A DNA stretch of 58,599 bases from an uncultured Eubacteriales bacterium (GCA_964576265.1 CAZNVB010000150.1:1-58599); one strand, 5' to 3'. Shown: positions 3,138 through 58,599, numbered from the stretch's first letter. The notes: a model not told the origin generated them from the letters alone. Numbers and translations: made by a program.

Positions 3138-3145
3138 GGCCGTCC

Positions 3146-4345: not shown

Positions 4346-4402
4346 TTTTCCTCCTGTCATTGATCGTCATGGCCGGCGGCAGGAATGAATCTTGAAGGCC
4401 CC

Positions 4403-4431: not shown

Positions 4432-4550
4432 TCGGAGCCGGCCGTTTGTCGTCTGTGTTTACGACATTCATCGTCACGGAGTCTTGTAGCTTGGTGCCGG
4501 AAAGAATTTCCGGATCGGAGATCATGAATGATGCAACCGGCTCTTTCTCT

Positions 4551-37883: not shown

Positions 37884-38115
37884 CGGCTTCACTCCTTATG
37901 GGTTCTCGGGATCGCTTTTTATTTTCATCGCCTTCCATTTATATTATTGAACCGGGGAGAGGTCAACCCCGTTCAAGCCGGCAAGCATCCTTCAACGGGC
38001 GACGGGAAAAACGTCCGCGAAAGGCGTGGAGGACCCGAGCCCTGGCCCCGACATCCCCCGGTTGCCAAGCGGACTCATCCCGCATCCGGAGAAGCTCTCT
38101 TCAAGCTGTCCATTC

Positions 38116-38144
38116 TTGCGCCGGGCGGCAAAATCGAATACAAT
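38116..38144 (+). promoter_or_regulatory. Promoter candidate TTGCGC-17 nt-TACAAT, 8 nt upstream of ATG 38153
   Basis: TTGCGCcgggcggcaaaatcgaaTACAATccccgaccATG. This geometry implies a leaderless or near-leaderless mRNA. Confidence 0.4.
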
Positions 38145-38152
38145 CCCCGACC

Positions 38153-39406
38153 ATGCGGCCGGAAAGCGAAATGAAAAGCTCGATTTCTCCTCCCTCCTCT
38201 CGGCTCGATTCGATCGATCTTTTCCGCGGGCTGACGATCTTTCTGATGATCTTCGTCAACGAGCTCGGCGGGCCGGGAATGGGGGACATCGTCGGCTATC
38301 CCGCCTGGCTTTGGCATGCGATGAAGCCCGACCGGTTTCATTTCGCCGATATCGTGGCGCCGGCGTTTTTGTTCATCATGGGCGTCTCGCTGCCTCTCGC
38401 CGTCAAAAAACGTCTGGAACAGGGGGATTCTTTGGGCCGGGTCTGGCGCCACGTCCTTGTCCGCACGGCCAGCCTGATGATCATCGGTATTTCCATGGGA
38501 AACATGCGGGCGGGCCGGCTGACGATGAGGCCGGTCGGTCTGAGTCCCATGCTCTGGACGACACTCCTCATGGCGAGTTTTCTTCTCATCTGGCTTCAAT
38601 ACCCCAAGGCCGGCGGCTGGAAGAAGGCTGTTTTTCTCGGGCTGCGCCTCGCGGGGGTCGTGCTCCTCGTCTCTCTTCTGGCAGTCTACCGGGAGGGACC
38701 GGAGCTCGGCTGGATCAAGGTCCGCTGGTTCGTTCTGGGCCTCTTGGGCTGGGCCTATCTCATCGGCTTCATCGCCTATCTTCTTTTCAAGCGCCATCCG
38801 GCCGGGATGGTCGGCCTGATCTCGCTTCTTTTTCTTTTAAGCATCGCCGAAAAAGCCGGTGTTTTTTCTCCTTATCCCTGGCTGATGTCCGTCAACAAAG
38901 TCGTCAACCTCGGCTCCGTGATCGGACTTCATCCGGCGATGACGGTCTCGGGCGTGTTCGTCGGCCTGCTCTTCCTTCCGGATTCCCCGGCCGGAACGGG
39001 TGGGAAACGCCTGAAGTGGATGCTCGCTTTTGCCGCCTGGGCGCTCCTGGGCGGGGTTTTTACCCGGCCGCTCTACGGGGCTTTCAAGCAGCAGATGACC
39101 CCGTCCTGGGGACTCTATAGCGTCGGCATCAGCGCGGCCGTTTTCGCCTTCGTCTACTGGCTGGTGGATGTCCGGAGGGTCAGAGCCTGGGGACGGATAT
39201 TCCGGCCGGTCGGGCAGAATCCGCTTCTTCCGTATTTCCTTCATTATATGCTTCACCCCCTGCTCATCGTCCTCGGCATCCACGGCGTCAACCATTATCT
39301 CCATTCCGGCTGGCCGGGCGTTTTCCGAACCCTCGGCGTCACCGTTCTTCTCGTTCTCTTTTCCAACTGGCTGACCGTCCGCTATCGCCTGCGGCTCAGG
39401 CTCTAA
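38153..39406 (+). CDS. Heparan-alpha-glucosaminide N-acetyltransferase-like (HGSNAT/DUF5009/DUF1624) integral membrane acyltransferase
   Basis: The family hallmark is at the N-terminus: RLDSIDLFRGLTIFLMIFVNE...PAWLWHA...FHFADIVAPAFLFIMGVSLPLA. About 10 further hydrophobic segments follow. The track's upstream extension (37850) has non-protein-like composition. ATG 38171 (GGAAAG SD) is an alternative start. Confidence 0.75.
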   Translation: MRPESEMKSSISPPSSRLDSIDLFRGLTIFLMIFVNELGGPGMGDIVGYPAWLWHAMKPDRFHFADIVAPAFLFIMGVSLPLAVKKRLEQGDSLGRVWRHVLVRTASLMIIGISMGNMRAGRLTMRPVGLSPMLWTTLLMASFLLIWLQYPKAGGWKKAVFLGLRLAGVVLLVSLLAVYREGPELGWIKVRWFVLGLLGWAYLIGFIAYLLFKRHPAGMVGLISLLFLLSIAEKAGVFSPYPWLMSVNKVVNLGSVIGLHPAMTVSGVFVGLLFLPDSPAGTGGKRLKWMLAFAAWALLGGVFTRPLYGAFKQQMTPSWGLYSVGISAAVFAFVYWLVDVRRVRAWGRIFRPVGQNPLLPYFLHYMLHPLLIVLGIHGVNHYLHSGWPGVFRTLGVTVLLVLFSNWLTVRYRLRLRL

Positions 39407-44741: not shown

Positions 44742-47444
44742 GTGCGCGTAAAAAGACAGGTCCGGCGGGTTCTTCGGCCGTCGATTTTATTTGCGGCGGC
44801 GTTGCTTGTGTTCATGGTCGACAGGGGCTCGGCCATGACCGGGGCGACTGACCAGCCTCGGATTCCTTATTCCAGCCAAGAGCTCTTCGCTCTCGGCGGG
44901 CAGAGAGTCTTCGAGGGGGAGAATCTCAATGAGATTGCCTTTCCGCTCGGCGGAATCGGAACCGGGACGGTCTCTCTAGGCGGCCGCGGAAACCTTCGGG
45001 ATTGGGAGATTTTCAATCGTCCCGGTAAAGGCGTCAACCTTCCGTTCACTTTTTTTGCCCTCTATTATGAGGAAGAGGACGGTCGGAAAGGCGTCCGTGT
45101 CCTTGAAGGTCCCTTGAACCCGCCGTTCAGCGGCCGCGACGGCGTCCCTCGGACCGGGGTCCCCGGACTTCCGCGTATGGAAAAAGCGCGATTTTTCGGC
45201 GAATACCCCTTAGCAAGAGTGGAGTTTGAGGACAGACGGGTCCCTCTGGCGATTTCGCTGGAAGCGTTCAACCCATTCATCCCCCTGAAGCCGGAAGAAT
45301 CCGGCATTCCCGCTGCGGTCCTCCGGTTTCGGGTCAAGAATCTCAGCCGGACGAAGATCAAAATCACCGTCGCCGGGTCGATCATGAATCCGATCGGCTT
45401 TGACGGACGCGACACAATCGCCGGCCTAAGCAACGAGAAATTCGGCGGAAACCTCAACCAGATCCGCCGGACGCCGACTCTTTCCGGCCTGTTCATGAGT
45501 TCGAAAAAGGTCGAACCGGGCTCCCCCGCGTTCGGCACCATGGCCCTCGCCACGACATGGAAGGACATCACCCACGTTTCCCATTGGGTGCGAGGCGATT
45601 GGTGGGACGACCTGCAAATTTTCTGGGATGATTTCAGCGACGACGGCCGGCTGAAGGCGACGGCGGAAGAAGATGCGTCTCCCGACAGGAGGACGGATGT
45701 CGGCTCCCTCGGACTTCTGGCCGTGATCGAACCTTATGCGGAAATTCAGCTGCCTTTCTTTCTCACCTGGCATTTTCCGAATGTCCTGAACGACTTTGAT
45801 ATTGTCCGGGAACAGAGGGGCGGCGTTTTCAAGAACCGTTACGCCGAGCGCTTCGCCGACGCCTGGGACGCAGCCGAACATCTCGCCGCCGCTCTCCCGC
45901 GCTTGGAAAGGGAAACCCGGCTTTTCCATCAGGCGCTCTTTTCGACGACCCTGCCTCCCTATGTGATCGACGCTCTCTCCAGCCAGATGTCCACCATCCG
46001 GACGACGACCTGTCTCTGGCTCGAAGGCGGAAAATTCTTCGGGTTCGAGGGATGTAACGATCGGAGCGGATGCTGTCCGCTGAACTGCGCCCATGTCTGG
46101 AACTATGAACAGAGTCTGGCCTTCCTTTTTCCCAGCCTCGAGCGCTCGATGCGCGAAACGGATTTTCTCACTCAGGTCAGGCCGGACGGAGCGATGATCT
46201 TCCGAACCTCGCTACCCCTCGGCGCTTCCTACTGGAATTTTCGGCCGGCGGCGGACGGTCAGATGGGGCGAATCATCAGTCTCTACCGCGACTGGCAGAT
46301 TTCAGGCGACAACGAATTTTTGAGGAAACTCTGGCCTCAGGCGAAGAAAGCCCTGGAATACGCCTGGATATCCTGGGATGCGGACCGGGACGGAATCATG
46401 GAGGGAGAGCAGCACAACACTTACGACATCGAGTTCTACGGTCCGAACAGCATGATGGGCGGATTTTATCTCGGAGCGCTTCTGGCGGGGTCGAAGATGG
46501 CCGAAGCCATGGGCGACAAAGGTGCGGCCAGGATGTATCTCGATCTTTTGGAGAAAGGGAAAAAGAAGTATGACGAGCTTCTCTGGAACGGAGAATATTA
46601 CGTCCAGAAATCCGATCAGGTGATGGAGAAAAAATATCAGTACGGCGAGGGCTGCCTTTCCGACCAGGTCCTTGGCCAGTGGCTGGCCATGGTTGCCGGG
46701 CTCGGCCGCTTTCTCCCCGAGAACCGTCTCCAAACGGCCCTCGGCTCGATCTTTCGCTACAACTTCAGGCCAGATTTCCGCGACTTTTCCAATGTCCAGA
46801 GGACTTATGCCCTAGGCGATGAGAAAGGGCTCTTGCTCTGCTCCTGGCCGAAGGGCGGGCGTCCGCCGCTTCCGTTTGTCTATTCGGATGAAGTCTGGAC
46901 GGGGATCGAGTATCATGTCGCTTCGCATCTGATTTATGAGGGCTTGCTCGAAGAAGGCCTGTCGCTTGTCAAAGCCGTGCGCGACCGCCATGACGGCCGG
47001 CGCCGCAACCCCTGGGATGAATTCGAGTGCGGGCATCACTACGCCCGGGCGATGTCGTCATGGGGACTGCTTCTCGCTTTATCCGGGTTTTCGTATTCGG
47101 GCCCGGATCTTCGGCTCGGATTCGCTCCGTGCCTCTCAGCGGAGAGTTTTCGCACCTTCTGGTCCACGGGATCCGGCTGGGGAACCTTCGAGCAGAAAGC
47201 GAAGAATGAAAAGGCGGTCGAAGCGGGATTGGCCGTCGCCTCGGGCGAGCTCGGGCTCAAAGAATTCTCCTTCCTTCTCCCGCCGGCTTTTCAAGATCGA
47301 GATCCGGTGTCTACGAGTGCCCGGCTCGACGGGAAGCCCCTCAAGCTCCAGGCCGTCAAGAACAGCCGCCGGGTCATCATTCGTTGGGAAAAGCCGGCCG
47401 TCCTGAAGGCCGGAGATCAGCTGTCGATCGAACTGGGGTTTTAG
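44742..47444 (+). CDS. GH116-family beta-glucosidase (GBA2 / non-lysosomal glucosylceramidase-like)
   Basis: The N-terminal domain signature is IAFPLGGIGTGTVSLGGRGNLRDWEIFNRPGKG. The catalytic (DUF608-type) region has GCCPLNCAHVWNYEQSLAFLFP and DGIMEGEQHNTYDIEFYGPN. The GTG start has GAGGAGGG 7 nt upstream. Confidence 0.88.
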   Translation: MRVKRQVRRVLRPSILFAAALLVFMVDRGSAMTGATDQPRIPYSSQELFALGGQRVFEGENLNEIAFPLGGIGTGTVSLGGRGNLRDWEIFNRPGKGVNLPFTFFALYYEEEDGRKGVRVLEGPLNPPFSGRDGVPRTGVPGLPRMEKARFFGEYPLARVEFEDRRVPLAISLEAFNPFIPLKPEESGIPAAVLRFRVKNLSRTKIKITVAGSIMNPIGFDGRDTIAGLSNEKFGGNLNQIRRTPTLSGLFMSSKKVEPGSPAFGTMALATTWKDITHVSHWVRGDWWDDLQIFWDDFSDDGRLKATAEEDASPDRRTDVGSLGLLAVIEPYAEIQLPFFLTWHFPNVLNDFDIVREQRGGVFKNRYAERFADAWDAAEHLAAALPRLERETRLFHQALFSTTLPPYVIDALSSQMSTIRTTTCLWLEGGKFFGFEGCNDRSGCCPLNCAHVWNYEQSLAFLFPSLERSMRETDFLTQVRPDGAMIFRTSLPLGASYWNFRPAADGQMGRIISLYRDWQISGDNEFLRKLWPQAKKALEYAWISWDADRDGIMEGEQHNTYDIEFYGPNSMMGGFYLGALLAGSKMAEAMGDKGAARMYLDLLEKGKKKYDELLWNGEYYVQKSDQVMEKKYQYGEGCLSDQVLGQWLAMVAGLGRFLPENRLQTALGSIFRYNFRPDFRDFSNVQRTYALGDEKGLLLCSWPKGGRPPLPFVYSDEVWTGIEYHVASHLIYEGLLEEGLSLVKAVRDRHDGRRRNPWDEFECGHHYARAMSSWGLLLALSGFSYSGPDLRLGFAPCLSAESFRTFWSTGSGWGTFEQKAKNEKAVEAGLAVASGELGLKEFSFLLPPAFQDRDPVSTSARLDGKPLKLQAVKNSRRVIIRWEKPAVLKAGDQLSIELGF

Positions 47445-48955
47445 AGGCCCGCCTTTTGAGCTTGATCGAGTTCCCGGGCGGCCAGCTCCGCCTTGATTTT
47501 CATCATGACCATCCGATCGACGGGGTAAGCGAGAATGACCAGGAAGGCCAGTCCGGCGAAGATTGCTCCCGAGATGAAGGTTTCCAGGGCGACATTTCTT
47601 GCCGCCTGAGCCGTCTGGACTTTGGCCTCGGAAACGATTCCGGCCCAGTTGAGCATCAACCCGGTGAGAAGGAGTCCCAGAGAAAGCGCGGCTTTGGAAA
47701 AAAAACTGAAGACCGCGGCATAGCTTCCGTCTTTGAGAACGCCCGTCCGATGCTTATTGATCTCGGAGAGGTCGGCGACCATGGAGGCAGCAAGGGGACC
47801 GATGACGCCGCTTCCTGCCCAGTACATTGCCTGGAAAAATGCGAAGGCGATCACGGCGAGGGGAAGAACCGTCCTGCCCAAGGCCGGAATTCCCTCCGGC
47901 AGGACGAGAACAGCCCGGGGACGGAGGAGGCCGCCGCCGAAAAGAAGAAGGAGCATCAGATTTCCCGCCACACTCAGCGCCACTCCGACCCCGGCCGCAG
48001 GCTTCTTGTCCAGCCGGTGCACCAGGATCGGCGCCAGCCAGGCGCCGAAGGCGAAGCCGACCATCGTGCTGCCGTGAGCCAATGTTTTCTGGAGATCGGT
48101 GAACTCCATGTAGAAACGGTAGGTGAACATTTGGATCTGGGCGACAAACATCATCCCCAGCTGAGCGACGCCGAAAAAGAGGAAGACGATCATCGCCCGC
48201 CGGTCGGTCAAGATCTCCCGCATGTCGCGAAAGAACTCGTTCCAGCCTTTGCCCTTGATTTCTCGGCTGGCTCGGGTGTCGTAGGCGTAGCGACGGGTGG
48301 AGAAAAAACAGATCAGGATCAAAACGAAAGACGCTAGGGCGAGGACCGCGCCCATCCGGGGGTAGTTTGATCTCAATGTTGTTCCGTCCACCAGCGCGCC
48401 GCCTGTCGATCTTCGGTCGGAGAAAAAAAGCATCCAGCCGCCGGCGTTGAAGAGGAGATTCATCGTCATGTTGAAAATGGAACGGACGCTCTGCAGGGTG
48501 GCCCGCTCCTCATAGTCGGTGCAAATTTCGAAACCGAGGGCCGCGTAAGGGACGCCGAACACCGTCCAGGTCGTGCGGACAATCAAGTTGACGACGAGGA
48601 TATACCAGAAAATCGCTGTCGGCCCTTGAAACGCCGAGGGAACAAACCAGAGGAAGAAAAAGGAGACGGCCAGGGAAAAACCGCCGACAAGGATGTAAGG
48701 ATGGCGCCGGCCGAAGCGGCTGCGGGTGTGGTCGGTGATGTGCCCCATGACCGGATCGGAAACCGCGTCCCAGAGCAGAGAAATAGAGAGAGCCAAACCG
48801 GCCCATTGGCTGTTCAGCCCGAGGACCTGAACATAGTAGAGCAAAGCGAAAGCGGCGATGCCGTTCATCGTCAACGAGGTCGCCCCTTCGCCGCTGGCAT
48901 AGAGAATGATTTGCCGGAGCGGCGTCCTCCGGCTTTGATTCATTCCCGGTTTCAT
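47441..48955 (-). CDS. MFS transporter, glycoside-pentoside-hexuronide (GPH):cation symporter family
   Basis: LYASGEGATSLTMNGIAAFALLYYVQVLGLNSQWAGLALSISLLWDAVSDPVMGHITDHTRSRFGRRHPYILVGG is the GPH/MelB-type signature region. I place the start at ATG 48955, which forms an ATGA overlap with the upstream stop. The track starts at 48997. Confidence 0.88.
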   Translation of the reverse strand: MKPGMNQSRRTPLRQIILYASGEGATSLTMNGIAAFALLYYVQVLGLNSQWAGLALSISLLWDAVSDPVMGHITDHTRSRFGRRHPYILVGGFSLAVSFFFLWFVPSAFQGPTAIFWYILVVNLIVRTTWTVFGVPYAALGFEICTDYEERATLQSVRSIFNMTMNLLFNAGGWMLFFSDRRSTGGALVDGTTLRSNYPRMGAVLALASFVLILICFFSTRRYAYDTRASREIKGKGWNEFFRDMREILTDRRAMIVFLFFGVAQLGMMFVAQIQMFTYRFYMEFTDLQKTLAHGSTMVGFAFGAWLAPILVHRLDKKPAAGVGVALSVAGNLMLLLLFGGGLLRPRAVLVLPEGIPALGRTVLPLAVIAFAFFQAMYWAGSGVIGPLAASMVADLSEINKHRTGVLKDGSYAAVFSFFSKAALSLGLLLTGLMLNWAGIVSEAKVQTAQAARNVALETFISGAIFAGLAFLVILAYPVDRMVMMKIKAELAARELDQAQKAGL

Positions 48956-51900
48956 GGGATTCTTGCCGGTTTCAGATCGGGAAGCCGGTACCGCCAAAGA
49001 CGGGCATTGGAGGCAAAATACAGCATCCCATCCTTAACGGCCAGGCCTGCCGTGGCCGGAACCGGAAGATCGGCCAATTTTTCCGGGCTGATCGGCCGGT
49101 CGAGGCGGAGGATGGACGAGCTGAGGAGGCCATAGATCGTTCCTCCCTGGGCCGCCGCCAGAGCGGGCCGGACCAGGCTGCCGAAGCGGGACAGATCCTC
49201 GAGGTGGACGACTTTCTTCTGCTTGAGGTCGAAGACAAAATATTTCGAACCCGAGGCGAGGCCGTAAATCAGTCCGTCCGGACCGACCTCGAGGCTGAAA
49301 ACCTCCTCGGCGCCTGGGACCGGAACCGTGCGGAAGACGACTTTTTTTGTCTTCCAGTCCAGGAGATAGAGGACGCCCTCCTTTTCCCGCGGATGACCCC
49401 CGCCGGGCGTGAGAACGCTCGTTCCGCCCACTAGGTCGCCGTTGGGCAGAGCTTTGAGAGTGTGAGTGCTGTGAAAGGGAATGACCTGCTCATGAGTGAG
49501 GAGGGTCTTTTCACCCGTCCTGAGATTGACGATGCCGATGCCTCCGCCGGTCATGCCGTATCCCATGAACCCGGCCATCAGGACGTGCTCTCCATCAGGA
49601 TGAGCGAGACAGGTCCGGGGTCGGGCGATGTCGCCCTCGAATTGAGCGATGATCTTGGGGTTCGGGTCGGCCGGATTCTCCTGATCGAACGGTCGGCTGG
49701 TGTCGAAGAGGTGGAAGTACCCGCTACTGTAGGAAGGCCCGACAAGGAATTTTCCCTGGGTGGCCAGGGCGCAGATATTGCCGCCGCCGATCCCCTTGAC
49801 GGGACCGAAGTCGGTCGTCGTCTGGGTTGCGGGATCATAGGCAAAGAAATGCATCGGATGCATCGTCGAGCCGTAGATTTTTCCGTCAGGGCCGACCGCG
49901 ACGGTGCTGATGGCCGCGCCGCCGGAGCGAAACCGGATCTCGATTTTCTTCTCCGAACCTGTTTTTGGGTCTCTGATCACCATCCATCGCTCCGGCAGAT
50001 TGTAGCGGACAAGCTCGCGGCCATCGGGGAAGACGCCGCTCACCGTCCCGAACGGGATCGCCTGCCGGGGCTCGAATTCCGGCAGGCTTTCTTTGGTCAC
50101 AGGCTCCGCTTTTCCGGCGAGCATCCTGAACCATTTTTCCCCTGCCTCCCCGTAAACGCGGCCGTCCAGGCCTCTGTGGACGCGGGCGGTCCCGAGAATC
50201 CGATCCTTTTCGGGAACAAGGGACCGCATCTCTCCGGTTTTCGGATCGAACGCGACGACGTTCATGCGGGCCGTCCCGATGCCGCAGTAGATCCATCCGG
50301 CCGAGTCCGTCGCCATGTTGCTCGGATAATGCTCCTCAGGGTCCATCCGGCCGTGGTCTTTCATCTCCTTTGTTTTCGGATCGAAGGAGACAAGATGGGA
50401 GTTCGGGTAGCTTCCCGCGTAGATCCTGCCGTCCGGGCCGTCGACCATCGCGCTTCCGGTGTAGCATTCCTCGGTCGGCGCCGGCACGCCGGCGAAGGTG
50501 AAACGCCGTTCGTCGAGGTCGAATTCGAGGAGGGTCGGACCGGCAAAGGTATAGAAACGGCCGTTTCGACTGAGGAGCGAGGCGTAGGGCGCCCAGGCGG
50601 CGAATCTTTCCGACCGGGTCATTTCCGGGAAGACATGCTGCTCTGTTTCTCCGCTATCGATGTCCGTGACGAGAAGCGAGCCCAGGGGACTCATGTCGAG
50701 CAGGCAGGCGATGGCCAGAGATCGTCCCTTGGCATCCTGGGCGACGACGACCCCGCGGCTCTCGGAGACCGGGGCGGCGATGCCGAGGTCGGCGAATCCG
50801 CTCTCCTTGACCAGGCTGGATCGGATCGCCTCTTCCCCTTTAAGATGCTTATCCAGCCAGCCGTAGATGAGCTGGCGGGCTTCGTAAGGGACGGAATGAC
50901 CCTGGCCGTGACTGTAGAAGGCAAAATTCTGCGGCGCCTGCTCCAGCTCATAGACGTCCATCACTTTCATCAGCATCAGGACCCGCTGGCGGTAGGTGAG
51001 TTGGGCGAGCCGAGGTTCGTCGCCGGCGATATAGTCGTTGAGGGCGCTGAGATCGAGGAAGGGACGCGGGGCGACGAGGGCCATGATCTCATGCATGTCG
51101 ATCGGCGGAAGCTCGCCCCGAAGCAGTCCGGGCCGCAGATGCTTGAAATACACATACCACTCGTCCCGGGCCCAGGCTTCGACCTTGCTGTTCTGTCGGA
51201 AGGGAGCGCAGGCCGAATTGGCGACGGTGACCTTGATTCTCGGATCGTAGGCGGCCAGGAAATAAGCTCCGTGCCCGCCGAGAGAATGGCCGATGACTCC
51301 GATCCTCTCCGGGTCGACTTCGGGCAATGTCTGAAGGACATCGACGGCGATGGCGTGCTCATAGGCGGCTTTCCCGACAGCCGTCCACTGGGGATGCTTC
51401 TCGTAAAACCGCTGGGTGTTGTAAGCGCCCTCGGGAGGGATGCGTTCCCCGGCGACAAAATGATCGGGAGCGATGACGACATAGCCGCGCCGGGCGAGCT
51501 GGTCGAGAAACGCTTTCTCCGGATTGTCTTCGAGGCCGGCCTCCCGCTCTTTCCCGCGGGGGTACGTGCCGTGAAGGGTGACCATCGCCGGGGCCGGTTT
51601 ATTGATCCTCAGCGGAACGGCGAGAAATGCGTGGGCCCTTTCCTCCGGTTCGACGGCGTAGCTGATCAGCCGGCGCTCATAGATGCCGTCGACTTCCACC
51701 GATTCATGGGTGATGAGGCCGAGGGGAGGCTTGGCCGGCTTATAGGCGTCGCGGATGAGCTCGAGATATCTTTTCCTCAGGATTTCTTTGCGCTCTTTCC
51801 AGTCGGCGGCATTTCTTACGCCCTCGAGAAGGTCATCCCAGGAGCTGACGATCGGCTGAGGATCGGAACGGCGGCGGACGGGCTGATCCTGGCGGAACGA

Positions 51901-51963
51901 GCCGGCAAAGGAAATGAAAAAGAGAAGGACAAGAACGATTCCGATCTCGGCTTTTCTCTTCAT
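48952..51963 (-). CDS. Secreted fusion: N-terminal alpha/beta-hydrolase (esterase) + C-terminal beta-propeller-like domain
   Basis: ATG 51963 (GGAGAGG SD) gives the signal peptide MKRKAEIGIVLVLLFFISFAGS. Esterase part: LARRGYVVIAPDHF...LPEVDPERIGVIGHSLGGHGAYF. Propeller part: GRIYAGSYPNSHLVSFDPKTKEM, GWIYCGIGTARMNVVAFDPKTGEM, GKIYGSTMHPMHFFAYDPATQ and GLIYGLASGSKYFVFDL. Confidence 0.8.
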   Translation of the reverse strand: MKRKAEIGIVLVLLFFISFAGSFRQDQPVRRRSDPQPIVSSWDDLLEGVRNAADWKERKEILRKRYLELIRDAYKPAKPPLGLITHESVEVDGIYERRLISYAVEPEERAHAFLAVPLRINKPAPAMVTLHGTYPRGKEREAGLEDNPEKAFLDQLARRGYVVIAPDHFVAGERIPPEGAYNTQRFYEKHPQWTAVGKAAYEHAIAVDVLQTLPEVDPERIGVIGHSLGGHGAYFLAAYDPRIKVTVANSACAPFRQNSKVEAWARDEWYVYFKHLRPGLLRGELPPIDMHEIMALVAPRPFLDLSALNDYIAGDEPRLAQLTYRQRVLMLMKVMDVYELEQAPQNFAFYSHGQGHSVPYEARQLIYGWLDKHLKGEEAIRSSLVKESGFADLGIAAPVSESRGVVVAQDAKGRSLAIACLLDMSPLGSLLVTDIDSGETEQHVFPEMTRSERFAAWAPYASLLSRNGRFYTFAGPTLLEFDLDERRFTFAGVPAPTEECYTGSAMVDGPDGRIYAGSYPNSHLVSFDPKTKEMKDHGRMDPEEHYPSNMATDSAGWIYCGIGTARMNVVAFDPKTGEMRSLVPEKDRILGTARVHRGLDGRVYGEAGEKWFRMLAGKAEPVTKESLPEFEPRQAIPFGTVSGVFPDGRELVRYNLPERWMVIRDPKTGSEKKIEIRFRSGGAAISTVAVGPDGKIYGSTMHPMHFFAYDPATQTTTDFGPVKGIGGGNICALATQGKFLVGPSYSSGYFHLFDTSRPFDQENPADPNPKIIAQFEGDIARPRTCLAHPDGEHVLMAGFMGYGMTGGGIGIVNLRTGEKTLLTHEQVIPFHSTHTLKALPNGDLVGGTSVLTPGGGHPREKEGVLYLLDWKTKKVVFRTVPVPGAEEVFSLEVGPDGLIYGLASGSKYFVFDLKQKKVVHLEDLSRFGSLVRPALAAAQGGTIYGLLSSSILRLDRPISPEKLADLPVPATAGLAVKDGMLYFASNARLWRYRLPDLKPARIP

Positions 51964-52015
51964 GGCGGTTTCCTCTCCAAACGAAATCGGCCGGCCCATC
52001 GCGGCTCAAGCCAAG

Positions 52016-52045
52016 AAGATATCTCTTTCCGCTCGGTCGGGTCAA
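52016..52045 (-). promoter_or_regulatory. Promoter candidate TTGACC-18 nt-TATCTT for the esterase-propeller/GPH operon
   Basis: Minus strand: TTGACCcgaccgagcggaaagagaTATCTT, about 50 nt upstream of ATG 51963. An AT-rich stretch lies further upstream (52084-52135). Confidence 0.35.
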
Positions 52046-52289
52046 GAAGAGATCGGCTTGATAACGGCTCTCGTCCCGACCCTGATTTGATTATTTCTAT
52101 AAAATTTATCGGAAAAATAGGAATAAAATCCTCCAAGGACGGCGAGTTGGATACGCGGCCGGCCACGGGGACGGGGAATTCCTCGTCGGGGAAGCCGAGG
52201 GGGCCAGCGGATGGAATCTGAGCCCTCGGCTGCGGTCGGTTCGGAGTCTGACCCCTCGGTCGCAGGCTGCGGGTTCATCCTCCGCCCGA

Positions 52290-53609
52290 TTACCAGCGGA
52301 AGCCTGTCCCGAGATTCACGACATCTCGGCGCAGTCCGTCTCCCTGGCGGCGGGTGTAGTTGAGCTGCAAGCGGAGATGCCCCATGATCACCCAGTCGAT
52401 GCCGGCGAGATAAATCGAGCTCCGCGCGATGTCGAGGTCATCGACGGCGGCGATCTCGTAGGGTCTCGATCCCCGGCCGAAGGCAAACCAGAGGAAGTTG
52501 GAGTCGCTGAAATAGGTTCTCAAGTTGGCCGTCCAGGAAAAGGCGGCTCCCTTTTGATCCGGCGTGTAATACCAGCGCAGGAAGACCAGGAATCTTCCCA
52601 GATAGCGGCCGATGCTTCCGAAATAGATATTCGCCGGTCGGGACGAGAAATTCATTCTCCGATACCCGAGAGAGAAATCCCAGGCAGATGAAATTCCTTG
52701 ATAGATCTCCACCAGATACTGAGAGTGCGGAAGATGAGCCGACCGGGGAGAGACGGCGGCATCCAGATAAGCATAGGCCCTCTTCCACAGGCGGGGGTAG
52801 AATTCGAGATCGAAATAAGTTTCCTTCTCGCCGAAGCGCTCCGCCCGTCCGATTTTAAGGACAAGGGGCCCGGCGCGGGTGAGCGGGATTTGAAAGGCAA
52901 GGCGCTCGTCCAGATAAGCGCTTCGGCCGTCGCTCCACGATTCGTTTTGCCCCTCGAAGCGGATTTCAAACCGATCCTGCCATCGGGGCGAAGCGGTTTT
53001 CAGGGCCCGCTCGTAGTCTTTGTTGTCGGGGGAAAGGCGGAGCGCCTGCCCGAAGAGTTTTCTCGCCCGGGCATAATTTCCATCCCAGAGATAAACTCGG
53101 GCGAGGCGGAAATGAAGATCAGGGTCTTCCGGATGCTGTTCTTTGAGCTGGGAATAGAGGGAAACGGCTGTGGGATAATCCCCCTGCCACGAGGCGACCT
53201 CGGCTAGCCCGATCAGGGCTTCTCTGTTTCCGGGGCTCAGGGTCAGGACTTCTTGATATCCGGACACAGCCGCGGGGTAATTTTTCTTCCAGGACTCGAC
53301 TCGCGAACGGAAGAGAAGGACATCGGTGTTTCCCGGATAGGCCCGGCTCATTTTATGGAAGATTTCCAGGGCTTCCTCGTACCGGCCGGAATAAGCATAA
53401 GCGCGGCCAAGGAGAAAATTCAGCTCGTAATCGATGGGATCAAACTTGAGTTCGTCAAGACAGAGACGAACAGCGTTCGAATAATCTCCTCTCCGGATCG
53501 CTTCCGAGGCTTTTTCTATTGTCGCTTCTTTAGATTGTCCGGACAGCCGGGGCAGGAAAAGAAAAAGGAGGCCGGAAAAAAGAACGATGGACCGGAAGCG
53601 TTTCGGCAT
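52290..53609 (-). CDS. Outer-membrane protein: N-terminal TPR repeats + C-terminal YaiO-like beta-barrel (candidate exopolysaccharide export porin)
   Basis: It has a signal peptide (IVLFSGLLFLFLPRLSGQS) and about 5 TPR units (…GDYSNAVRLCLDELKFDP…GRYEEALEIFHKMSRAYPGN…GDYPTAVSLYSQLKEQHPEDP…). The last ~230 aa have alternating beta-strand character and end in the aromatic GTGFRW. Segments IGRAERFGEKETYF and FSLGYRRMNF resemble E. coli YaiO as I recall it. Confidence 0.65.
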   Translation of the reverse strand: MPKRFRSIVLFSGLLFLFLPRLSGQSKEATIEKASEAIRRGDYSNAVRLCLDELKFDPIDYELNFLLGRAYAYSGRYEEALEIFHKMSRAYPGNTDVLLFRSRVESWKKNYPAAVSGYQEVLTLSPGNREALIGLAEVASWQGDYPTAVSLYSQLKEQHPEDPDLHFRLARVYLWDGNYARARKLFGQALRLSPDNKDYERALKTASPRWQDRFEIRFEGQNESWSDGRSAYLDERLAFQIPLTRAGPLVLKIGRAERFGEKETYFDLEFYPRLWKRAYAYLDAAVSPRSAHLPHSQYLVEIYQGISSAWDFSLGYRRMNFSSRPANIYFGSIGRYLGRFLVFLRWYYTPDQKGAAFSWTANLRTYFSDSNFLWFAFGRGSRPYEIAAVDDLDIARSSIYLAGIDWVIMGHLRLQLNYTRRQGDGLRRDVVNLGTGFRW

Positions 53610-53612
53610 CGG

Positions 53613-55028
53613 CTACCTCGTTATGGCAAATCCTTTTCTCTCCATGGCCCCCCACTCTGTTTTCCCCCGGAAGAAATCGTAGAACGCCCGGACGCGGACG
53701 ACGGCAAGCCATTGGCGGTAGACGATGTTTTCGAAGAAGCTGAACAGGGTAATGATCAGGATGTCCTTGAGACGGGGATAGCGGTGGGAAGAGAATTCCT
53801 GAAGAAGAAGGGAAATCAAAGACAGGAGAATGCCCATGATGACGGCGACGAGGAAAAAGAGCAGGGCAAAGGGAAAGTCGACAAGGTTGAAAAACAGGCA
53901 GGCGGCAAACATCAGGTATCCTAAGACTTCGATGATCGGGCCGAGCATCTCGAAAAAGAAGTAAAAAGGCATGGCCACAAACCCGGTAACGCCGTAACGG
54001 GGGTTGAAGAGCATTTTGGAATTATAGAGAAGACAGTCGACGAGACCCCGATGCCAGCGGTTTCTCTGTCTGGCCAGGAGGCGCAGGGATTCCGGCGCTT
54101 CCGTCCAGCAGATCGGGTCGGGGATGAACCGGATCGCGTATGGTTTTTTCATCTCATGGAGATGTCTCCGCAGCCTGATGACAAGGTCCATATCTTCGCC
54201 GACCGTTCCTTTTCGATAGCCGCCGCACTGGAGGACGACATCTTTGCGGAACAAGCCGAATGCGCCTGAAATGATCAAAAGACTGTTGAGCTTGCTCAGC
54301 CCGGTCCGCCCGCCCAGAAAGGCCCGCAGGTATTCGATGATCTGGAAGCGGGCCAGGGTGTTGCCCGGCATCCCGACCCGGACGAGCTGGCCGTTTTTGA
54401 TCGCGCAACCGTTGCTCAGGCGGATGATCCCGCCGGCGGCGACGGTCTTTTCCGGCTCTTCGAGAAACGGACGGACCATTTTCAAAAGCGCGTCTTTCTC
54501 GAGAAGAGAGTCGCTGTCCACGGCGCAGAAAAGGGGAAAGCGGGAGATGTTCAGGCCGGCGTTCAAGGCATCGGCTTTTTTCCCGTTGACTTTATCGACC
54601 ACCACGAGTCTCGGATAGAGAGGAGAGGCATAGATTCCTCTGACCGGCTGGTGGTCGACGATCTTGCGGAAGACGCGTTTCGTCTTTTCCAGATGGAAAA
54701 AGCGGATGAGCTTTTCGAGCGTCCTGTCCTTCGATCCGTCGTTGACGACGATGACCTCGAAATTCGGATACTCGAGGGAGAGCAAAGACCGCGTGCTTTC
54801 GATGATCGTGTTCTCTTCGTTGTAGGCCGGAGCGATGATGGAGATGGGCTTGACGAGCGGCAGGCGGAAGATCTCCTTGAAGCGGATGTAGGTCGTGAGG
54901 TGGCGATAATGGAAAAGGCCGTGGAGCGAAAGAAGATTAAAGAGGATGTAAAAGCCGTTGACCAGGAAAAAATAGGTGAGGATGACGATATTGATCGTCC
55001 GGAGGGCGGCGCTCAACATTTCGATCAT
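53613..55028 (-). CDS. Processive family-2 glycosyltransferase (PgaC/IcaA/BcsA/NfrB-type membrane-embedded polysaccharide synthase)
   Basis: N-terminal TM helices, then IIAPAYNEE...VIVVNDGSKD...CAVDSDS (DxD)...GEDMD...QRNRW (54054-54068). Several C-terminal TM helices follow (FVAMPFYFFFEMLGPIIEVLGYLMFAACLFF...). Confidence 0.88.
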   Translation of the reverse strand: MIEMLSAALRTINIVILTYFFLVNGFYILFNLLSLHGLFHYRHLTTYIRFKEIFRLPLVKPISIIAPAYNEENTIIESTRSLLSLEYPNFEVIVVNDGSKDRTLEKLIRFFHLEKTKRVFRKIVDHQPVRGIYASPLYPRLVVVDKVNGKKADALNAGLNISRFPLFCAVDSDSLLEKDALLKMVRPFLEEPEKTVAAGGIIRLSNGCAIKNGQLVRVGMPGNTLARFQIIEYLRAFLGGRTGLSKLNSLLIISGAFGLFRKDVVLQCGGYRKGTVGEDMDLVIRLRRHLHEMKKPYAIRFIPDPICWTEAPESLRLLARQRNRWHRGLVDCLLYNSKMLFNPRYGVTGFVAMPFYFFFEMLGPIIEVLGYLMFAACLFFNLVDFPFALLFFLVAVIMGILLSLISLLLQEFSSHRYPRLKDILIITLFSFFENIVYRQWLAVVRVRAFYDFFRGKTEWGAMERKGFAITR

Positions 55029-55031
55029 GGG

Positions 55032-56093
55032 TCAACTCGCTCCCGGGAACTGGACCAGCTCGTTCAGAATCATGACCGACATATCTCGGGCATACCTGTC
55101 CTCTTCTTGAGCGGCGACCTCCTTCAGGCGGTGGAGTCCAGTTTCGCCGATCTCGGCCAGAGCCTGGGCGGCGCTATAGCGGACATACCAATGGGGGGAA
55201 AAGAGGGCCTTAACCAGGATCTCCACGGTCTGCGGATTCTTGAGTTTTCCCAGGCTTTTGAGCGCCTGGGTCTGGACTTCCCAGGCCTGATCGGACGCCA
55301 AAGCAATCAACGATTCTGCGGTCTCGGGGATGAGAAGGTTTCCCAGAGCCCGGGCAACCTTGATCCGGATTTCCTTTTCGGGGTGAGAGGCGAGACGGAC
55401 GATCTCTTCCCAGACGGAACGGACCGGGATCGCGCCGGCGAGTTCGACGAGAAGCCCGACTTTTTCAATCGGCAGCGGCTTGCGCAGATATTCTCTGAGC
55501 AGGGACTCGACTCTCGTGCCCAGGCTGAACATGATGTTGAAATAGATCCTGCTCGCAGATCCCGGATCCTGCTCGAAGGCCTGAAAGAGAAAATTCATCA
55601 TCTCCGGAGAGGGGATCCGGGAAAGGGCCGTGAGCACGGCCAGTTTGATGATTGGTTTATCTTGAAGAAGCCGAAGAAGGACCTCTTTGTCTTGGCGGCT
55701 GAAGAAAATGACGAACAGCCGGGCATTTTGAAGACGGCGGATCGTGCGCCTCGAGTTCAGGGATTTCAAACAACGGTTCCTGATAGTGCGGTCGAAGATG
55801 ATTTGCAGTTGGGTCCGGCCTTCGCCGGTGAGAAGATCTCCGTAATCGAGAAGGACTCGGGTCAGAACCGAGAGATGATGTTTGTGACGCGCGGCAATTC
55901 GGCTGGAGACGTCCGCCTGTCCGAGGGAAATGGCCTGCAGAATGTCGTTTTCAATCCGGCGATAGCTTTTTTCGAAGCGATCCTTTTGCCAGTCGGTTAC
56001 GAGGCGACGGACGACGATGAAGAGAAAAAGGGAAAGGGAAAACAGGACGAGAAAAACGATGCCGGAGAGGGCAATGAGGGCGGAAGGATTCAT
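55032..56093 (-). CDS. Single-pass membrane protein with cytoplasmic HEAT/PBS-lyase-type repeats
   Basis: TM helix ALIALSGIVFLVLFSLSLFLFIVV, then helical-hairpin repeats: HPEKEIRIKVARALGNL, DQAWEVQTQALKSLGKL and SPHWYVRYSAAQALAEIG. Its start overlaps the upstream stop (ATGA, 56090-56093). Confidence 0.75.
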   Translation of the reverse strand: MNPSALIALSGIVFLVLFSLSLFLFIVVRRLVTDWQKDRFEKSYRRIENDILQAISLGQADVSSRIAARHKHHLSVLTRVLLDYGDLLTGEGRTQLQIIFDRTIRNRCLKSLNSRRTIRRLQNARLFVIFFSRQDKEVLLRLLQDKPIIKLAVLTALSRIPSPEMMNFLFQAFEQDPGSASRIYFNIMFSLGTRVESLLREYLRKPLPIEKVGLLVELAGAIPVRSVWEEIVRLASHPEKEIRIKVARALGNLLIPETAESLIALASDQAWEVQTQALKSLGKLKNPQTVEILVKALFSPHWYVRYSAAQALAEIGETGLHRLKEVAAQEEDRYARDMSVMILNELVQFPGAS

Positions 56094-56950
56094 GAACCGG
56101 AATCCAAAATTTTCTTGATCTTGGCTAGAAGAACCTGGGGAGAAAACGGCTTGGTGAGATAATCCGTGGCGCCGATTTCCAGGCCCTTCAGGACATCCGC
56201 CTCCTCGGCCAGAGAGCTGAGGATGACGACCGGAATATGGGCTTTTTCTTCGTCATTTTTATAAAGAGAAAGGAATTGAAAGCCGTTGAGGTCTGGCATC
56301 ATGATGTCCAGGATAATAAGGGCGGGATCTTCCTTAAAGGCTTTTTTCAGCCCTTCCACCCCTGAAAGAGAGCTGGTGACGTCGTAATGCTCTTGCTTTA
56401 AAAAATGAGTGATGATTTTCACCGTGGTCGGGTCGTCATCGACGACCAGGATTTTCTTTGTTCCCATGGCGGGAGACGGCGCGCTCGCCGGAACTTTTTC
56501 GAGCGTCGAGGGAAGAGAAGACTCCAGCAGCTTTTTGATCATCAGCAGCTTCTCGAGTTCGCGATCGAGCTCCTGTTTCCATTGATCCTCAGAGTGATCG
56601 GGAGAAGGGTTAGACGGCGGGTTTTCCGTTTGCGCCGGCGATGGGAGCTCCAGAGCTTTTTCGCCTCCGTTCGCTTTCAGGCTTTCGATGGCTTCTCTTA
56701 GTTCCTTGACTTTGATCAACTCGGAAAAGGCAGATTCGGCCAATTTTTCCAATTTGGCTTTCATTTCGGTGGCGAAGGCGTGATGCGCATCGACTTCTTG
56801 TCTGATCTTGCCGATCATCGAGGCGACTTCCCTCCGGTCAAAGGAAAGATTGATCTTCGGGCGGCAGGCTTTTTTGGCCGACTTCGAGAGGCCGGACTTT
56901 TGCCTGGGCTTCGATTGGCCGGATGGAAACGGCGATTCTGTCTGGCTCAT
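56090..56950 (-). CDS. Response-regulator receiver protein with an N-terminal coiled-coil / Pro-Ser-rich region and no recognisable output domain
   Basis: The C-terminal REC domain is KKILVVDDDPTTVKII...ALIILDIMMPDLNGFQF...PVVILSS...GATDYLTKPF, with the acceptor Asp, Ser/Thr and Lys all present. The N-terminal ~160 aa are coiled-coil (KIRQEVDAHHAFATEMKAKLEKLAESAFSELIKVKELREAIESL) plus a PSPAQTENPPSNPSP linker. Confidence 0.8.
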   Translation of the reverse strand: MSQTESPFPSGQSKPRQKSGLSKSAKKACRPKINLSFDRREVASMIGKIRQEVDAHHAFATEMKAKLEKLAESAFSELIKVKELREAIESLKANGGEKALELPSPAQTENPPSNPSPDHSEDQWKQELDRELEKLLMIKKLLESSLPSTLEKVPASAPSPAMGTKKILVVDDDPTTVKIITHFLKQEHYDVTSSLSGVEGLKKAFKEDPALIILDIMMPDLNGFQFLSLYKNDEEKAHIPVVILSSLAEEADVLKGLEIGATDYLTKPFSPQVLLAKIKKILDSGS

Positions 56951-57114
56951 CGGTCTTCAGCGGTTGACGAAATCTCGCTTTTCCAGCTTATTCCAGGTGA
57001 AAACCCCGTCCTATCCCCTTAGACGGTGAATTTAAGGGGGATTTTTCCGCTTTCTTAATCCTCGGTTGCGGGCATTCAGGGTCATCTTTCGGGAGGGGGA
57101 TCGGCCGGCTGATT

Positions 57115-58428
57115 TCAGGCTTGAAGGAATTCGCGCTGTTCCCCCCTGTAGAGACGAAAGCGATTTCGACCGTCGGCCTTCGCCCGATACATGGCGATAT
57201 CGGCGTTCTTGACAAGAGCGTCGGCATCGTTTCCATCCTCGGGATAAACGGCAATTCCGATGCTGGCGGTGATCGGGATTTTCCGGTTCTCGACATCGAA
57301 CGGCTTTTGAAAAGACAGAATCACTCTTTCGGCGACGTTTTTGGCGACTTCGATGGTCGGGATTTCGGGCAGAAGAAGAATGAATTCATCCCCGCCCAGT
57401 CGGGCCATGGTGTCGCCTTTGCGAAACATCTGAAGAAGCCGGTTGGAGACGCTCTGGAGAAGCCGGTCGCCCGTATTGTGTCCGAAGGTGTCGTTGACCT
57501 TCTTGAATTCGTCCAAATCGAGCATCAGAACGGCCAGGCGGTGAGTTTCTCTCTGGGCGCGGGCGAGAGCCATCGTCAGCCGGTCGAAAAACAAGGACCG
57601 ATTGGGGAGCTCGGTCAGATGGTCGTGGATGGCGTTGTGGCGCAGCTTTTCTTCGTACCGCCTCCGCTCGGTGATGTCGTAAAGAACGAGGACTAAACCG
57701 CTGGTCTCGCCTTTGTTGTCCCTGGTCACGGTCGCTTTGAGCTCGACGGGAACTTTGTCCTCATAGTTGACGATCAGGATACTTCCGTCGGCCGGAACTC
57801 CCAGCTTACCGTTGAGGATGTCCGCAACCGAGAGTCGGATCAGGCGTCCCGAGCTCTCCTCCACCAGATGAAGAATGCTGAGGATCGGCTTGCCGATGCT
57901 TTCCTCCTTGCTCCAGCCGGTCAGTTTCTCCGCCACGGGATTCATAAAACTGACGTTCCCCTGGCGGTCGGCGGCGATGATCCCCTCGCCGATGCTCCGG
58001 AGGATCGTGCTCAGCCATTCCTCGCGTTCTTTCAGCTTGAGCTCCATCTGATGTTTGTAGAGGGCCATCTCGATGACCGTGATCAATTCTTTCTGGTCGA
58101 CCGGCTTGAGCGTATAGCCAAGAGGCTGAGTAAATTTGGCCCGGCGGAGAGTGTTTTCGTCGGCGTGGGCGGTCAGATAGATCACCGGGATGTCGGACCG
58201 CTCGCGAATTTTCTCGGCGGCTTCCACGCCGTCCATCTCTCCTCGCAAGACGATGTCCATCAGGATCAGGTCCGGCTGCATTTTCTCGGCCAGCAGGAGG
58301 GATTCCTCGCCGGTCGACGCCAGGCCGCAGACCTCGTAGCCGGCGTTTCTGACGATGAGTTCGATATCCTGAGCGATGAGCGCTTCGTCCTCGACGATCA
58401 AAATCCGCGCTTTTTCAGGTGGGCTCAT
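57115..58428 (-). CDS. Response regulator diguanylate cyclase (REC-PAS-GGDEF)
   Basis: REC: ARILIVEDE...DLILMDIVL...TLKP. PAS: STILRSIGEGIIAADRQGNVSFMNPVAEKLTGWSKEE. An intact GGDEF is at 57382-57396 (GGC GGG GAT GAA TTC). The RxxD I-site RKGD lies five residues upstream, the same spacing as in PleD. Confidence 0.92.
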   Translation of the reverse strand: MSPPEKARILIVEDEALIAQDIELIVRNAGYEVCGLASTGEESLLLAEKMQPDLILMDIVLRGEMDGVEAAEKIRERSDIPVIYLTAHADENTLRRAKFTQPLGYTLKPVDQKELITVIEMALYKHQMELKLKEREEWLSTILRSIGEGIIAADRQGNVSFMNPVAEKLTGWSKEESIGKPILSILHLVEESSGRLIRLSVADILNGKLGVPADGSILIVNYEDKVPVELKATVTRDNKGETSGLVLVLYDITERRRYEEKLRHNAIHDHLTELPNRSLFFDRLTMALARAQRETHRLAVLMLDLDEFKKVNDTFGHNTGDRLLQSVSNRLLQMFRKGDTMARLGGDEFILLLPEIPTIEVAKNVAERVILSFQKPFDVENRKIPITASIGIAVYPEDGNDADALVKNADIAMYRAKADGRNRFRLYRGEQREFLQA

Positions 58429-58599
58429 GGTTTTTGTCGGGCGCCGGATTCTTCAAAGCGAAGGATGAAATTCGTTCCCGGATGCCGGACGAGTTCGATG
58501 GCGGCGTCGATCTGGCCGGCGAGGGTGCAGACGATCTGCAGGCCGAGGGTCTCGGTCCGGCGGAAATCCAAGCCCTCCGGCATCCCCACCCCGTCATCC
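58425..58599 (-). CDS. Sensor histidine kinase, C-terminal HATPase_c fragment (5' end beyond the window)
   Basis: Not in the ORF track. My own translation gives DDGVGMPEGLDFRRTETLGLQIVCTLAGQIDAAIELVRHPGTNFILRFEESGARQKP*. This is the G1/G2-box-to-end region of a histidine kinase. Its TGA overlaps the ATG of the GGDEF regulator (ATGA, 58425-58428). Confidence 0.8.
   Translation of the reverse strand, partial: DDGVGMPEGLDFRRTETLGLQIVCTLAGQIDAAIELVRHPGTNFILRFEESGARQKP

Follow-up and report, generated by a model that had tools for sequence, protein, structure and literature searches.

To our knowledge, five synthase-dependent systems of exopolysaccharide secretion are commonly cited (cellulose, poly-beta-1,6-GlcNAc (PNAG), alginate, Pel and Nfr), and all five are switched by cyclic di-GMP (c-di-GMP). 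Here we describe a four-gene operon at one end of a stretch of 58,599 nucleotides filed under an uncultured Eubacteriales bacterium (GCA_964576265.1, CAZNVB010000150.1:1-58599), which as a whole is referred to below as the window. The four genes (52290-56950) encode a receiver protein (REC), a HEAT-repeat protein with a transmembrane (TM) helix (TM-HEAT), a family-2 glycosyltransferase (GT2) and a protein in which tetratricopeptide repeats (TPRs) are followed by a barrel of the YaiO family (TPR/YaiO). We propose, with a probability of roughly 55%, that they form a synthase-dependent exopolysaccharide secretion machine that is gated by a phosphorylatable REC protein docking on the HEAT protein. 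Judged by curated models and by pairwise comparison with E. coli PgaC, PgaA, NfrB and NfrA, the operon appears to work like the Pga, Bcs, Pel, Alg and Nfr systems, yet it belongs to none of them. The initial annotation of this DNA had already called the locus a variant of synthase-dependent secretion with an unusual accessory set, and the description was borne out by a predicted processive-synthase fold, a TPR/YaiO porin candidate and the lack of any curated family above its cut-off.

The Pga/Ica/Hms systems (PgaABCD, IcaADBC, HmsHFRS) share with the operon an inner-membrane processive GT2 with the motifs D, DxD, ED and QxxRW, an outer-membrane protein of periplasmic TPRs and a C-terminal barrel, and a small membrane-anchored partner of the synthase. 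Unlike them, the present operon has no PgaB/IcaB deacetylase, the place of PgaD is held by an unrelated TM-HEAT protein of 353 aa, and the predicted barrel belongs to the YaiO family and has 14 strands, compared with 16 in PgaA. It is also without an evident c-di-GMP receptor and carries a REC protein predicted to be phosphorylatable. NfrB-NfrA-YbcH, the c-di-GMP-activated N4-receptor glycan system of E. coli, is likewise a compact operon with a GT2 and a TPR/barrel outer-membrane protein, and the MshEN receptor fold of NfrB is also found on the REC subunit of Hakubella (see below). However, the GT2 is only marginally similar to NfrB (34 bits over 84 aa), NfrA matches a short TPR stretch only, no YbcH-like gene is present, and the NfrB-type layout, in which the GT2 is fused to a C-terminal MshEN, is not found since the window GT2 gave no MshEN match.

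The only other setting found here in which a YaiO-family barrel gene lies beside a GT2 gene is the yaiO cluster of E. coli. The initial annotation had named yaiO as a neighbour of the GT2 gene yaiP and of yaiS, and a yaiO-yaiX-yaiP-yaiS neighbourhood does exist. YaiP is 30% identical to the window GT2 over 237 aa, including 'IISGAxGxFR', and has DxD, ED and RxxRW. YaiO itself differs in having no TPR domain and no significant pairwise similarity, the link being made through Pfam and TIGRFAM profiles only; its cluster contains a deacetylase and an acyltransferase, the latter interrupted by IS2 in K-12, and no HEAT or REC gene. Because no product of this cluster is known, it gives no functional information. 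The class I hyaluronan synthases (HAS; Chlorella virus Cv-HAS and the vertebrate enzymes) and BcsA have the same predicted fold over nearly the whole GT2 chain, and in them one protein both polymerises and translocates, but the sequences are only 15-18% identical, HAS acts on its own, BcsA depends on BcsB and PilZ, and neither has a HEAT or REC partner. In E. coli-type cellulose secretion the single-pass membrane protein BcsF tethers the cytosolic regulator BcsE, which has a receiver-like domain, to cellulose synthase. This pair may be likened to the HEAT and REC proteins by concept only: the receiver of BcsE is degenerate and c-di-GMP is bound through GIL, whereas here the receiver is canonical and the putative tether is a HEAT solenoid, with no sequence relationship between the two.

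The four genes constitute the core and form one operon. REC and HEAT overlap by 4 nt, and gaps of 3 nt separate HEAT from GT2 and GT2 from TPR/YaiO; given that dozens of independent genomes have this gene order, the arrangement is not due to chance. Upstream are a gene for a REC-PAS-GGDEF cyclase and the 3' end of a histidine kinase (HK) gene, whose stop codon lies over the cyclase start in a second 4-nt overlap. All six genes are on the minus strand (Table 1), and the overlaps and gaps initially annotated were reproduced exactly by the list of open reading frames (ORFs). Between the cyclase and REC genes lie 164 nt in which the operon probably begins a transcription unit of its own, and a promoter and terminator scan of this gap gave no signal above shuffled expectation. 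A hairpin with a 10-bp stem (CCCCTTA...TAAGGGG) lies within it at 57014-57040 and is terminator-like for the non-coding strand only, because its T-run is on the plus strand. To judge by the names on the closest homologues, the source organism is a Candidatus Aminicenantes bacterium.

The GT2 matched the Pfam families Glycos_transf_2, Glyco_tranf_2_3, Glyco_trans_2_3 and Chitin_synth_2, and D97, D171xD173 (DSD), E278-D279 (GED) and Q321RNRW325 were invariant in 36 orthologues; identity across Aminicenantes was 65-80%. An AlphaFold2 model (pLDDT 74) showed a GT-A domain preceded by a single membrane helix and followed by five helices at the C-terminus. The top fold match of this model in the PDB was Cv-HAS, over the full length (TM-score 0.65, E 7e-10), followed by Xenopus HAS1 and then BcsA (TM-score ~0.53) and chitin synthases, with a mannosyltransferase and DPMS-like enzymes further down the ranking of the Foldseek search. 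Independently of the fold search, the sequence profile of the GT2 was aligned to Cv-HAS at residues 18-412 and to BcsA at residues 255-398; a PDB search with the single GT2 sequence gave N-terminal GT-A matches only, and the synthases came up only with the profile and with the fold search. The hallmarks named in the initial annotation (DxD, GED, QRNRW and flanking TM helices) were hence upheld by invariant motifs and by the fold match to HAS, BcsA and chitin synthase, and the protein did not fall among non-processive transferases, its top fold and profile matches being polymer synthases. The matched targets polymerise and also translocate their product, so the matches do not point to a non-processive enzyme. 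By motifs (D, DxD, (T/G)ED, QxxRW) and by a predicted TM channel fold, the operon has the membrane-embedded processive GT2 of a synthase-dependent system, and we infer that this protein is an inner-membrane processive family-2 glycosyltransferase acting as polymerase and translocon. The nearest characterised homologue was E. coli PgaC (25% identity over 353 aa, E 1e-27). PgaC_IcaA was the top NCBIfam match (6.4e-39) yet below its cut-off, the equivalog TIGR03937 scoring 134.1 bits against 422.3, and the BcsA model TIGR03030 scored 40.2 bits against 699.1, with no PilZ match.

The product of the last gene was assigned to the YaiO family by PF19413 (1.2e-29, 103.9 bits against a cut-off of 23.9), with many TPR families alongside, and by TIGR04390 at residues 243-439 (1.5e-25, 90.6 bits against a cut-off of 32). 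Its N-terminus, MPKRFRSIVLFSGLLFLFLPRLSG, is a predicted signal peptide with no Cys. The AlphaFold2 model (pLDDT 88) consists of 12 helices, corresponding to ~6 TPRs, and then 14 strands at residues 215-438, so that the TPR-plus-C-terminal-barrel layout with a YaiO-like barrel, as first described, was recovered in both the profiles and the model. Foldseek matched the model to TPR proteins, to BcsC (9b8h) and PelBC (9h80_M) over the whole chain, and to the barrel protein Omp33 (6gie, TMt 0.63). It is not a PgaA: the models TIGR03939/NF007468 gave 48.9 bits against 366.65, and TPR residues 137-203 alone were aligned. The operon therefore combines with its GT2 a candidate periplasmic TPR scaffold and outer-membrane barrel, and the protein, on its model, would be an export porin and scaffold with periplasmic TPRs and a 14-strand barrel in the outer membrane.

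The HEAT protein (HEAT_2, 3.5e-23 in Pfam) has one N-terminal TM helix after a short N-terminus, followed by RR, and since RR comes directly after the helix the HEAT body is probably cytoplasmic. In a PDB search residues ~203-349 matched HEAT repeats and residues 30-200 matched nothing. A word-indexed homologue search reached Aminicenantes-type relatives only. An exhaustive profile search of 1.8 billion representatives returned mostly long multi-HEAT proteins, and the full-length family was small, with ~12 cluster representatives at 50% identity. The protein is best regarded as a single-pass membrane-anchored, constant partner of the GT2.

For the REC protein Pfam found Response_reg (1.2e-26) at residues 167-279 and nothing else; no output domain was recognised. 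The predicted phosphorylation residues are D171, D172, D215, S245 and K267, a set that is expected of a phosphorylatable receiver. Among 72 REC genes upstream of HEAT, the phospho-acceptor Asp was kept in 71, the Lys and the Ser/Thr in all 72 and the acidic pair in 70. The N-terminal ~160 aa are two poorly conserved, low-complexity helical segments with Pro/Ser-rich linkers and no domain match, although in close relatives the region is kept (63% identity to L011 over residues 16-286; numbers prefixed L are our own locus labels). The idea that the N-terminal extension of the Aminicenantes REC proteins is a cryptic Hpt or MshEN was rejected because it had no Pfam match and no invariant His.

To describe the distribution of the system, 185,579 species genomes were scanned with the alignment of HEAT clusters, which yielded 80 loci; hidden Markov models built from our own alignments were run on every stop-to-stop ORF of all loci, and the arrangements were counted. 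All loci were reached by way of a single conserved peptide pattern of HEAT and are a biased sample, so the distribution is a lower bound, and taxon labels are the titles of metagenome-assembled genome (MAG) records, some of which appear wrong. In the 29 Aminicenantes species genomes the GT2 gene came directly after HEAT in every case, REC was upstream of HEAT in 27/27 loci with room, and TPR plus barrel was downstream in 22/26 with room; in one more it was truncated by the end of the contig. Seven loci (L013, L014, L015, L017, L019, L027 and L030) come from records titled 'uncultured Eubacteriales' or 'Clostridiales bacterium' and have a GT2 62-75% identical to that of Aminicenantes; their labels look wrong.

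The 51 loci from other phyla had GT2 directly after HEAT in 45 of the 50 with room, REC upstream of HEAT in 34/49, and a TPR gene upstream or downstream in 23. HEAT-GT2, usually with REC, was found in Gemmatimonadota, Alphaproteobacteria, Myxococcota, Planctomycetota, Verrucomicrobiota, Actinomycetota, a Symbiobacteriaceae MAG, Hakubella and Marinimicrobia. The GT2 was 43-51% identical to the window GT2 in most of these loci and 39% in L079 and L085; five loci had a weak GT2 match only (<300 bits). Look-ups of individual homologues showed that the REC-HEAT-GT2-TPR/YaiO quartet of Aminicenantes recurs in unrelated genomic neighbourhoods, and the expectation that it would be syntenic elsewhere was confirmed in many genomes. 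The conserved core is HEAT and GT2, usually with REC, and with TPR/YaiO in diderms.

All four genes are present in Alphaproteobacteria, in the order REC-TPR/YaiO-HEAT-GT2. One such locus (L092, NC_014918.1 384387-392367) is on plasmid pMESCI01 of a cultured strain, Mesorhizobium ciceri bv. biserrulae WSM1271, where the genes are annotated only generically: a hybrid HK (5TMR-LYT-PAS-HisKA-HATPase-REC), two single-domain response regulators, a TPR/YaiO protein of 580 aa (170 bits against TIGR04390), HEAT and GT2, with a separate Hpt gene on the other strand. PgaC_IcaA was again the best NCBIfam match of the GT2 (1.7e-42, 146 bits against 422). Similar HEAT matches were seen on Devosia and Paraburkholderia replicons. 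The Actinomycetota, which we take to be monoderm, usually have HEAT-GT2 without a barrel gene, and this is what an export system predicts.

Some of these loci contain further proteins. A 540-645-aa protein just upstream of REC in two loci of Alphaproteobacteria, L057 (2310-4247) and L090 (2282-3898), matched nothing in Pfam, NCBIfam or the PDB and may be an unrecognised accessory, perhaps a polymer-processing enzyme. In the Gemmatimonadales loci the GT2 is followed by a protein of ~850 aa, with N-terminal TPRs and a large domain without Pfam match, and then by a second TPR gene. In a Planctomycetales MAG (L046) REC-HEAT-GT2 is preceded by a 720-aa CotH kinase-family protein (3075-5237, 5.1e-70) and followed by a 561-aa protein without domain match.

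The regulatory genes upstream of the operon are distributed differently from the core. The cyclase has Response_reg (5.5e-22), PAS (2.8e-12) and GGDEF (3.4e-54) matches, and in its translation 'RKGDTMARLGGDEF' an RKGD, i.e. an RxxD I-site, stands five residues before GGDEF, so that by its motifs it is a predicted active cyclase with the intact GGDEF and I-site initially noted. The 57-aa HK fragment had no Pfam match. Its closest counterpart is the C-terminal end of the kinase encoded ahead of the cyclase in L002, L003, L012, L013 and L017, with which it shares 60-66% identity, and in L002 and L003 that kinase contains GAF, PAS, HisKA_2 and HATPase_c. A cyclase orthologue (~69% identity) is upstream of the operon only in L002, L003, L011, L012, L013 and L017: the HK and REC-PAS-GGDEF pair was found in 6/39 Aminicenantes-type loci (5/29 of the species-genome loci L011-L039) and in 0/51 loci of other phyla. 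The cyclase is a lineage-specific neighbour of one sub-clade and is not in the conserved core.

The initial annotation had further stated that the usual accessory parts (PgaB/IcaB, PgaD, PilZ, MshEN, GIL) are absent, and a search of the four core proteins in Pfam and NCBIfam (E<=0.01) accordingly found no PilZ, MshEN, GIL, PgaB-like, PgaD-like or degenerate GGDEF/EAL domain. Where other systems have an inner-membrane c-di-GMP receptor or co-polymerase (PilZ, PgaD, Alg44, PelD, MshEN, GIL), TM-HEAT and REC are found instead, and the four-gene operon contains no periplasmic enzyme for modifying or cleaving the polymer. What could not be maintained is the claim that the system is wired to a c-di-GMP module, given the restriction of the cyclase pair to a few Aminicenantes-type loci and the lack of a known c-di-GMP-binding domain in the core. 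Of the conservation that had been expected, the part that concerned the quartet held, and the linkage to GGDEF genes did not extend beyond six close relatives.

Parts of a His-Asp phosphorelay (histidine kinases, an Hpt-REC fusion, a separate Hpt gene) are the recurrent partners of the core, more often than c-di-GMP proteins. In Gemmatimonadales (L040-L055, L059 and L063) the REC subunit is an Hpt-REC fusion, which in L045 (~5000-5760) has an Hpt match of 7.7e-12, a Response_reg match of 3.8e-17 and the motif 'HKIRGSAGSFG'. The Symbiobacteriaceae locus has the order HK-REC-HEAT-GT2, its kinase being recognised from the H-box sequence. In Candidatus Hakubella thermalkaliphila (L080:3658-5955, NZ_BLRZ01000012.1) the protein directly upstream of HEAT-GT2 has 765 aa and carries four N-terminal MshEN domains (3.2e-75) before the REC domain. 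MshEN is a c-di-GMP receptor fold, and an MshEN-REC fusion has been noted earlier, its function not being known (PMC5013675).

The mechanism that we propose starts from what was observed directly, namely domain content, motifs, predicted folds, operon coupling, co-occurrence across phyla, an intact phosphorylation site and phosphorelay neighbours. The GT2 would polymerise a sugar nucleotide in the inner membrane and thread the chain through its own channel, as the hyaluronan, cellulose and PNAG synthases do. The chain would be received by the periplasmic TPR domain and passed over the outer membrane by the 14-strand YaiO-type barrel, as suggested by the arrangement of domains, by the model and by linkage in the operon. 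The HEAT solenoid, anchored in the membrane and probably cytoplasmic, would to judge by co-occurrence be an obligate partner that contacts the synthase, and it would offer a docking surface for the receiver protein, and phosphorylation of the receiver Asp by a cognate histidine kinase or phosphorelay would turn the synthase on or off. In the window this kinase is most likely the HK at the edge, which may also phosphorylate the REC-PAS-GGDEF cyclase, so that polymer synthesis and c-di-GMP would be co-regulated and rise together. Since the edge HK would phosphorylate both receivers, the adjacency of HK, cyclase and operon is explained without making c-di-GMP a conserved switch, and in the proposed mechanism c-di-GMP is not the conserved input. 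Because PgaC and IcaA are the nearest characterised relatives, a first guess for the polymer is a hexosamine-containing homopolymer.

An alternative would keep c-di-GMP as the switch: the product of the adjacent cyclase would bind an unrecognised site on HEAT, REC or GT2 and activate the synthase, as in PgaCD, BcsA-PilZ and NfrB-MshEN. Control by c-di-GMP is established for all well-studied synthase-dependent systems, the cyclase gene with its intact GGDEF and I-site is only 164 nt away from the operon on the upstream side, and the cyclase is beside the operon in six related loci; the fusion of the Hakubella REC subunit to four MshEN domains, a known c-di-GMP receptor fold (PMC5013675), points the same way. 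We nevertheless consider this gating unlikely. The cyclase is not beside the operon in 24/29 Aminicenantes species-genome loci, 33/39 Aminicenantes-type loci and 51/51 loci of other phyla, and no PilZ, MshEN, GIL or degenerate GGDEF/EAL was recognised in the four core proteins. The complete phosphorylation site of REC would also be superfluous in a pseudo-receiver that did nothing but bind a nucleotide, and Hpt and HK are the recurrent neighbours.

Two further explanations concern the product. The operon could be a lineage-specific rearrangement of pgaABCD, a divergent PNAG system of the Pga/Ica/Hms type whose GT2 makes poly-beta-1,6-GlcNAc, and indeed the window GT2 (6.4e-39) and the Mesorhizobium GT2 (1.7e-42) both have PgaC_IcaA as their best match in NCBIfam, E. 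coli PgaC is the best characterised GT2 homologue and PgaA is likewise a TPR-plus-barrel protein. The scores of 134 and 146 bits for these two GT2s, however, are far below the equivalog cut-off of 422, identity to PgaC is 25% compared with 43-51% among cross-phylum orthologues, neither a PgaB-type deacetylase/hydrolase nor a PgaD was found, and the barrel is of the YaiO family, with the PgaA model matching the TPR part only (48.9 bits against 366.65), all of which makes a PNAG system quite improbable. It is also conceivable that nothing is secreted and that the GT2 makes a membrane-bound or periplasmic glycoconjugate (a glycolipid, periplasmic glucan or protein glycan), TPR/YaiO having an unrelated role. 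GT2 enzymes with flanking TM helices do include non-exporters, and mannosyltransferase and DPMS-like matches were obtained at lower rank; several genomes have no TPR/barrel gene next to the operon, and monoderm Actinomycetota carry HEAT-GT2 alone. We think this very unlikely, given that every full-length fold match at the top of the ranking is a polymer synthase that forms a channel, that QxxRW and the C-terminal helix bundle are conserved, and that the TPR/barrel gene is translationally coupled (3-nt gap) and co-conserved in 22/26 Aminicenantes genomes and in Alphaproteobacteria; the lack of a porin in monoderms is moreover what a secretion system predicts.

Several observations weigh against a REC-gated secretion machine as we propose it. 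The loci L024, L028 and L031 have no TPR/barrel gene on the same strand next to the operon, and in the complete Aminicenantes genome L001 (CP070750.1, 3298071-3319129) REC-HEAT-GT2 has no TPR/YaiO gene beside it. An adjacent REC is missing in 15/49 loci of other phyla, mostly Actinomycetota, and REC is therefore not obligatory everywhere. The Hakubella 4xMshEN-REC fusion, which is the only direct hint of c-di-GMP, and the adjoining cyclase keep a c-di-GMP input possible. The HEAT-GT2 and REC-HEAT contacts are inferred from gene linkage, and confidence in the GT2 model is moderate overall (pLDDT 74) and low for the loops that surround the active site. With 14 strands, the barrel is narrower than the porins of Pga, Bcs, Pel and Alg, which have 16-18. 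L024 and L028 do have a weak barrel/TPR match, which lies on the opposite strand.

The remainder of the window next to the operon (28044-51999) is a glycan-degradation neighbourhood (Table 1). The esterase/propeller and MFS_2 genes were considered as parts of the system, e.g. as the missing deacetylase, and were rejected because no counterparts lie beside the operon in any other locus and because their neighbours are glycan-degradation genes. Two long antisense ORFs, 49462-52221(+) of 919 aa against the esterase gene and 54651-56162(+) of 503 aa against the HEAT, GT2 and REC genes, are taken by us to be shadow ORFs and not genes.

Table 1. Genes and intervals of the window referred to in the text (lengths of the operon and cyclase genes from the ORF list)
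Feature	Position	Strand	Remarks
TPR/YaiO gene	52290-53609	minus	439 aa
GT2 gene	53613-55028	minus	471 aa
TM-HEAT gene	55032-56093	minus	353 aa
REC gene	56090-56950	minus	286 aa
Intergenic gap, cyclase to REC	56951-57114		164 nt
REC-PAS-GGDEF cyclase gene	57115-58428	minus	437 aa
HK gene, 3' end (partial ORF)	58425-58599	minus	57-aa fragment; runs to window edge; stop codon at 58425-58427
GH67-like/DUF4838 protein fused to glucuronyl-esterase-like domain	31086-34331
DUF5009/HGSNAT-like acetyltransferase	37850-39406
GH20 hexosaminidase	42665-44605
GH116	44742-47444
MFS_2 sugar transporter	47441-48997
Esterase-like (esterase/propeller) protein	48952-51999		1015 aa; ~700 C-terminal residues without Pfam match

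No description of a HEAT-GT2-REC or a YaiO-linked polysaccharide system was found in the literature searched, in which YaiO figures mainly as an E. coli PCR marker. The system is apparently uncharacterised, its novelty lying in the HEAT partner with a phosphorylatable receiver and, in diderms, in the YaiO-type porin. More tentatively, and at clearly less than even odds, it may represent a widespread, unrecognised class of machine in which His-Asp phosphotransfer takes over from c-di-GMP as the post-translational switch, the phosphorylated receiver on HEAT directly turning on a PgaC/HAS-like synthase. The YaiO family, with the orphan protein of E. coli among its members, would then be a small 14-strand type of export porin. 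If the proposal is true, the operon would be a sixth kind of synthase-dependent system, found from Aminicenantes to rhizobia and Actinomycetota and taking direct two-component input through a receiver and a HEAT scaffold, and it would give the YaiO outer-membrane family its first functional context. Given that the gene set is on a plasmid of the cultured and genetically tractable Mesorhizobium ciceri WSM1271, the hypothesis is directly testable. Aminicenantes are abundant in anoxic sediments and digesters, and the polymer may matter for the formation of biofilms or aggregates by these bacteria.

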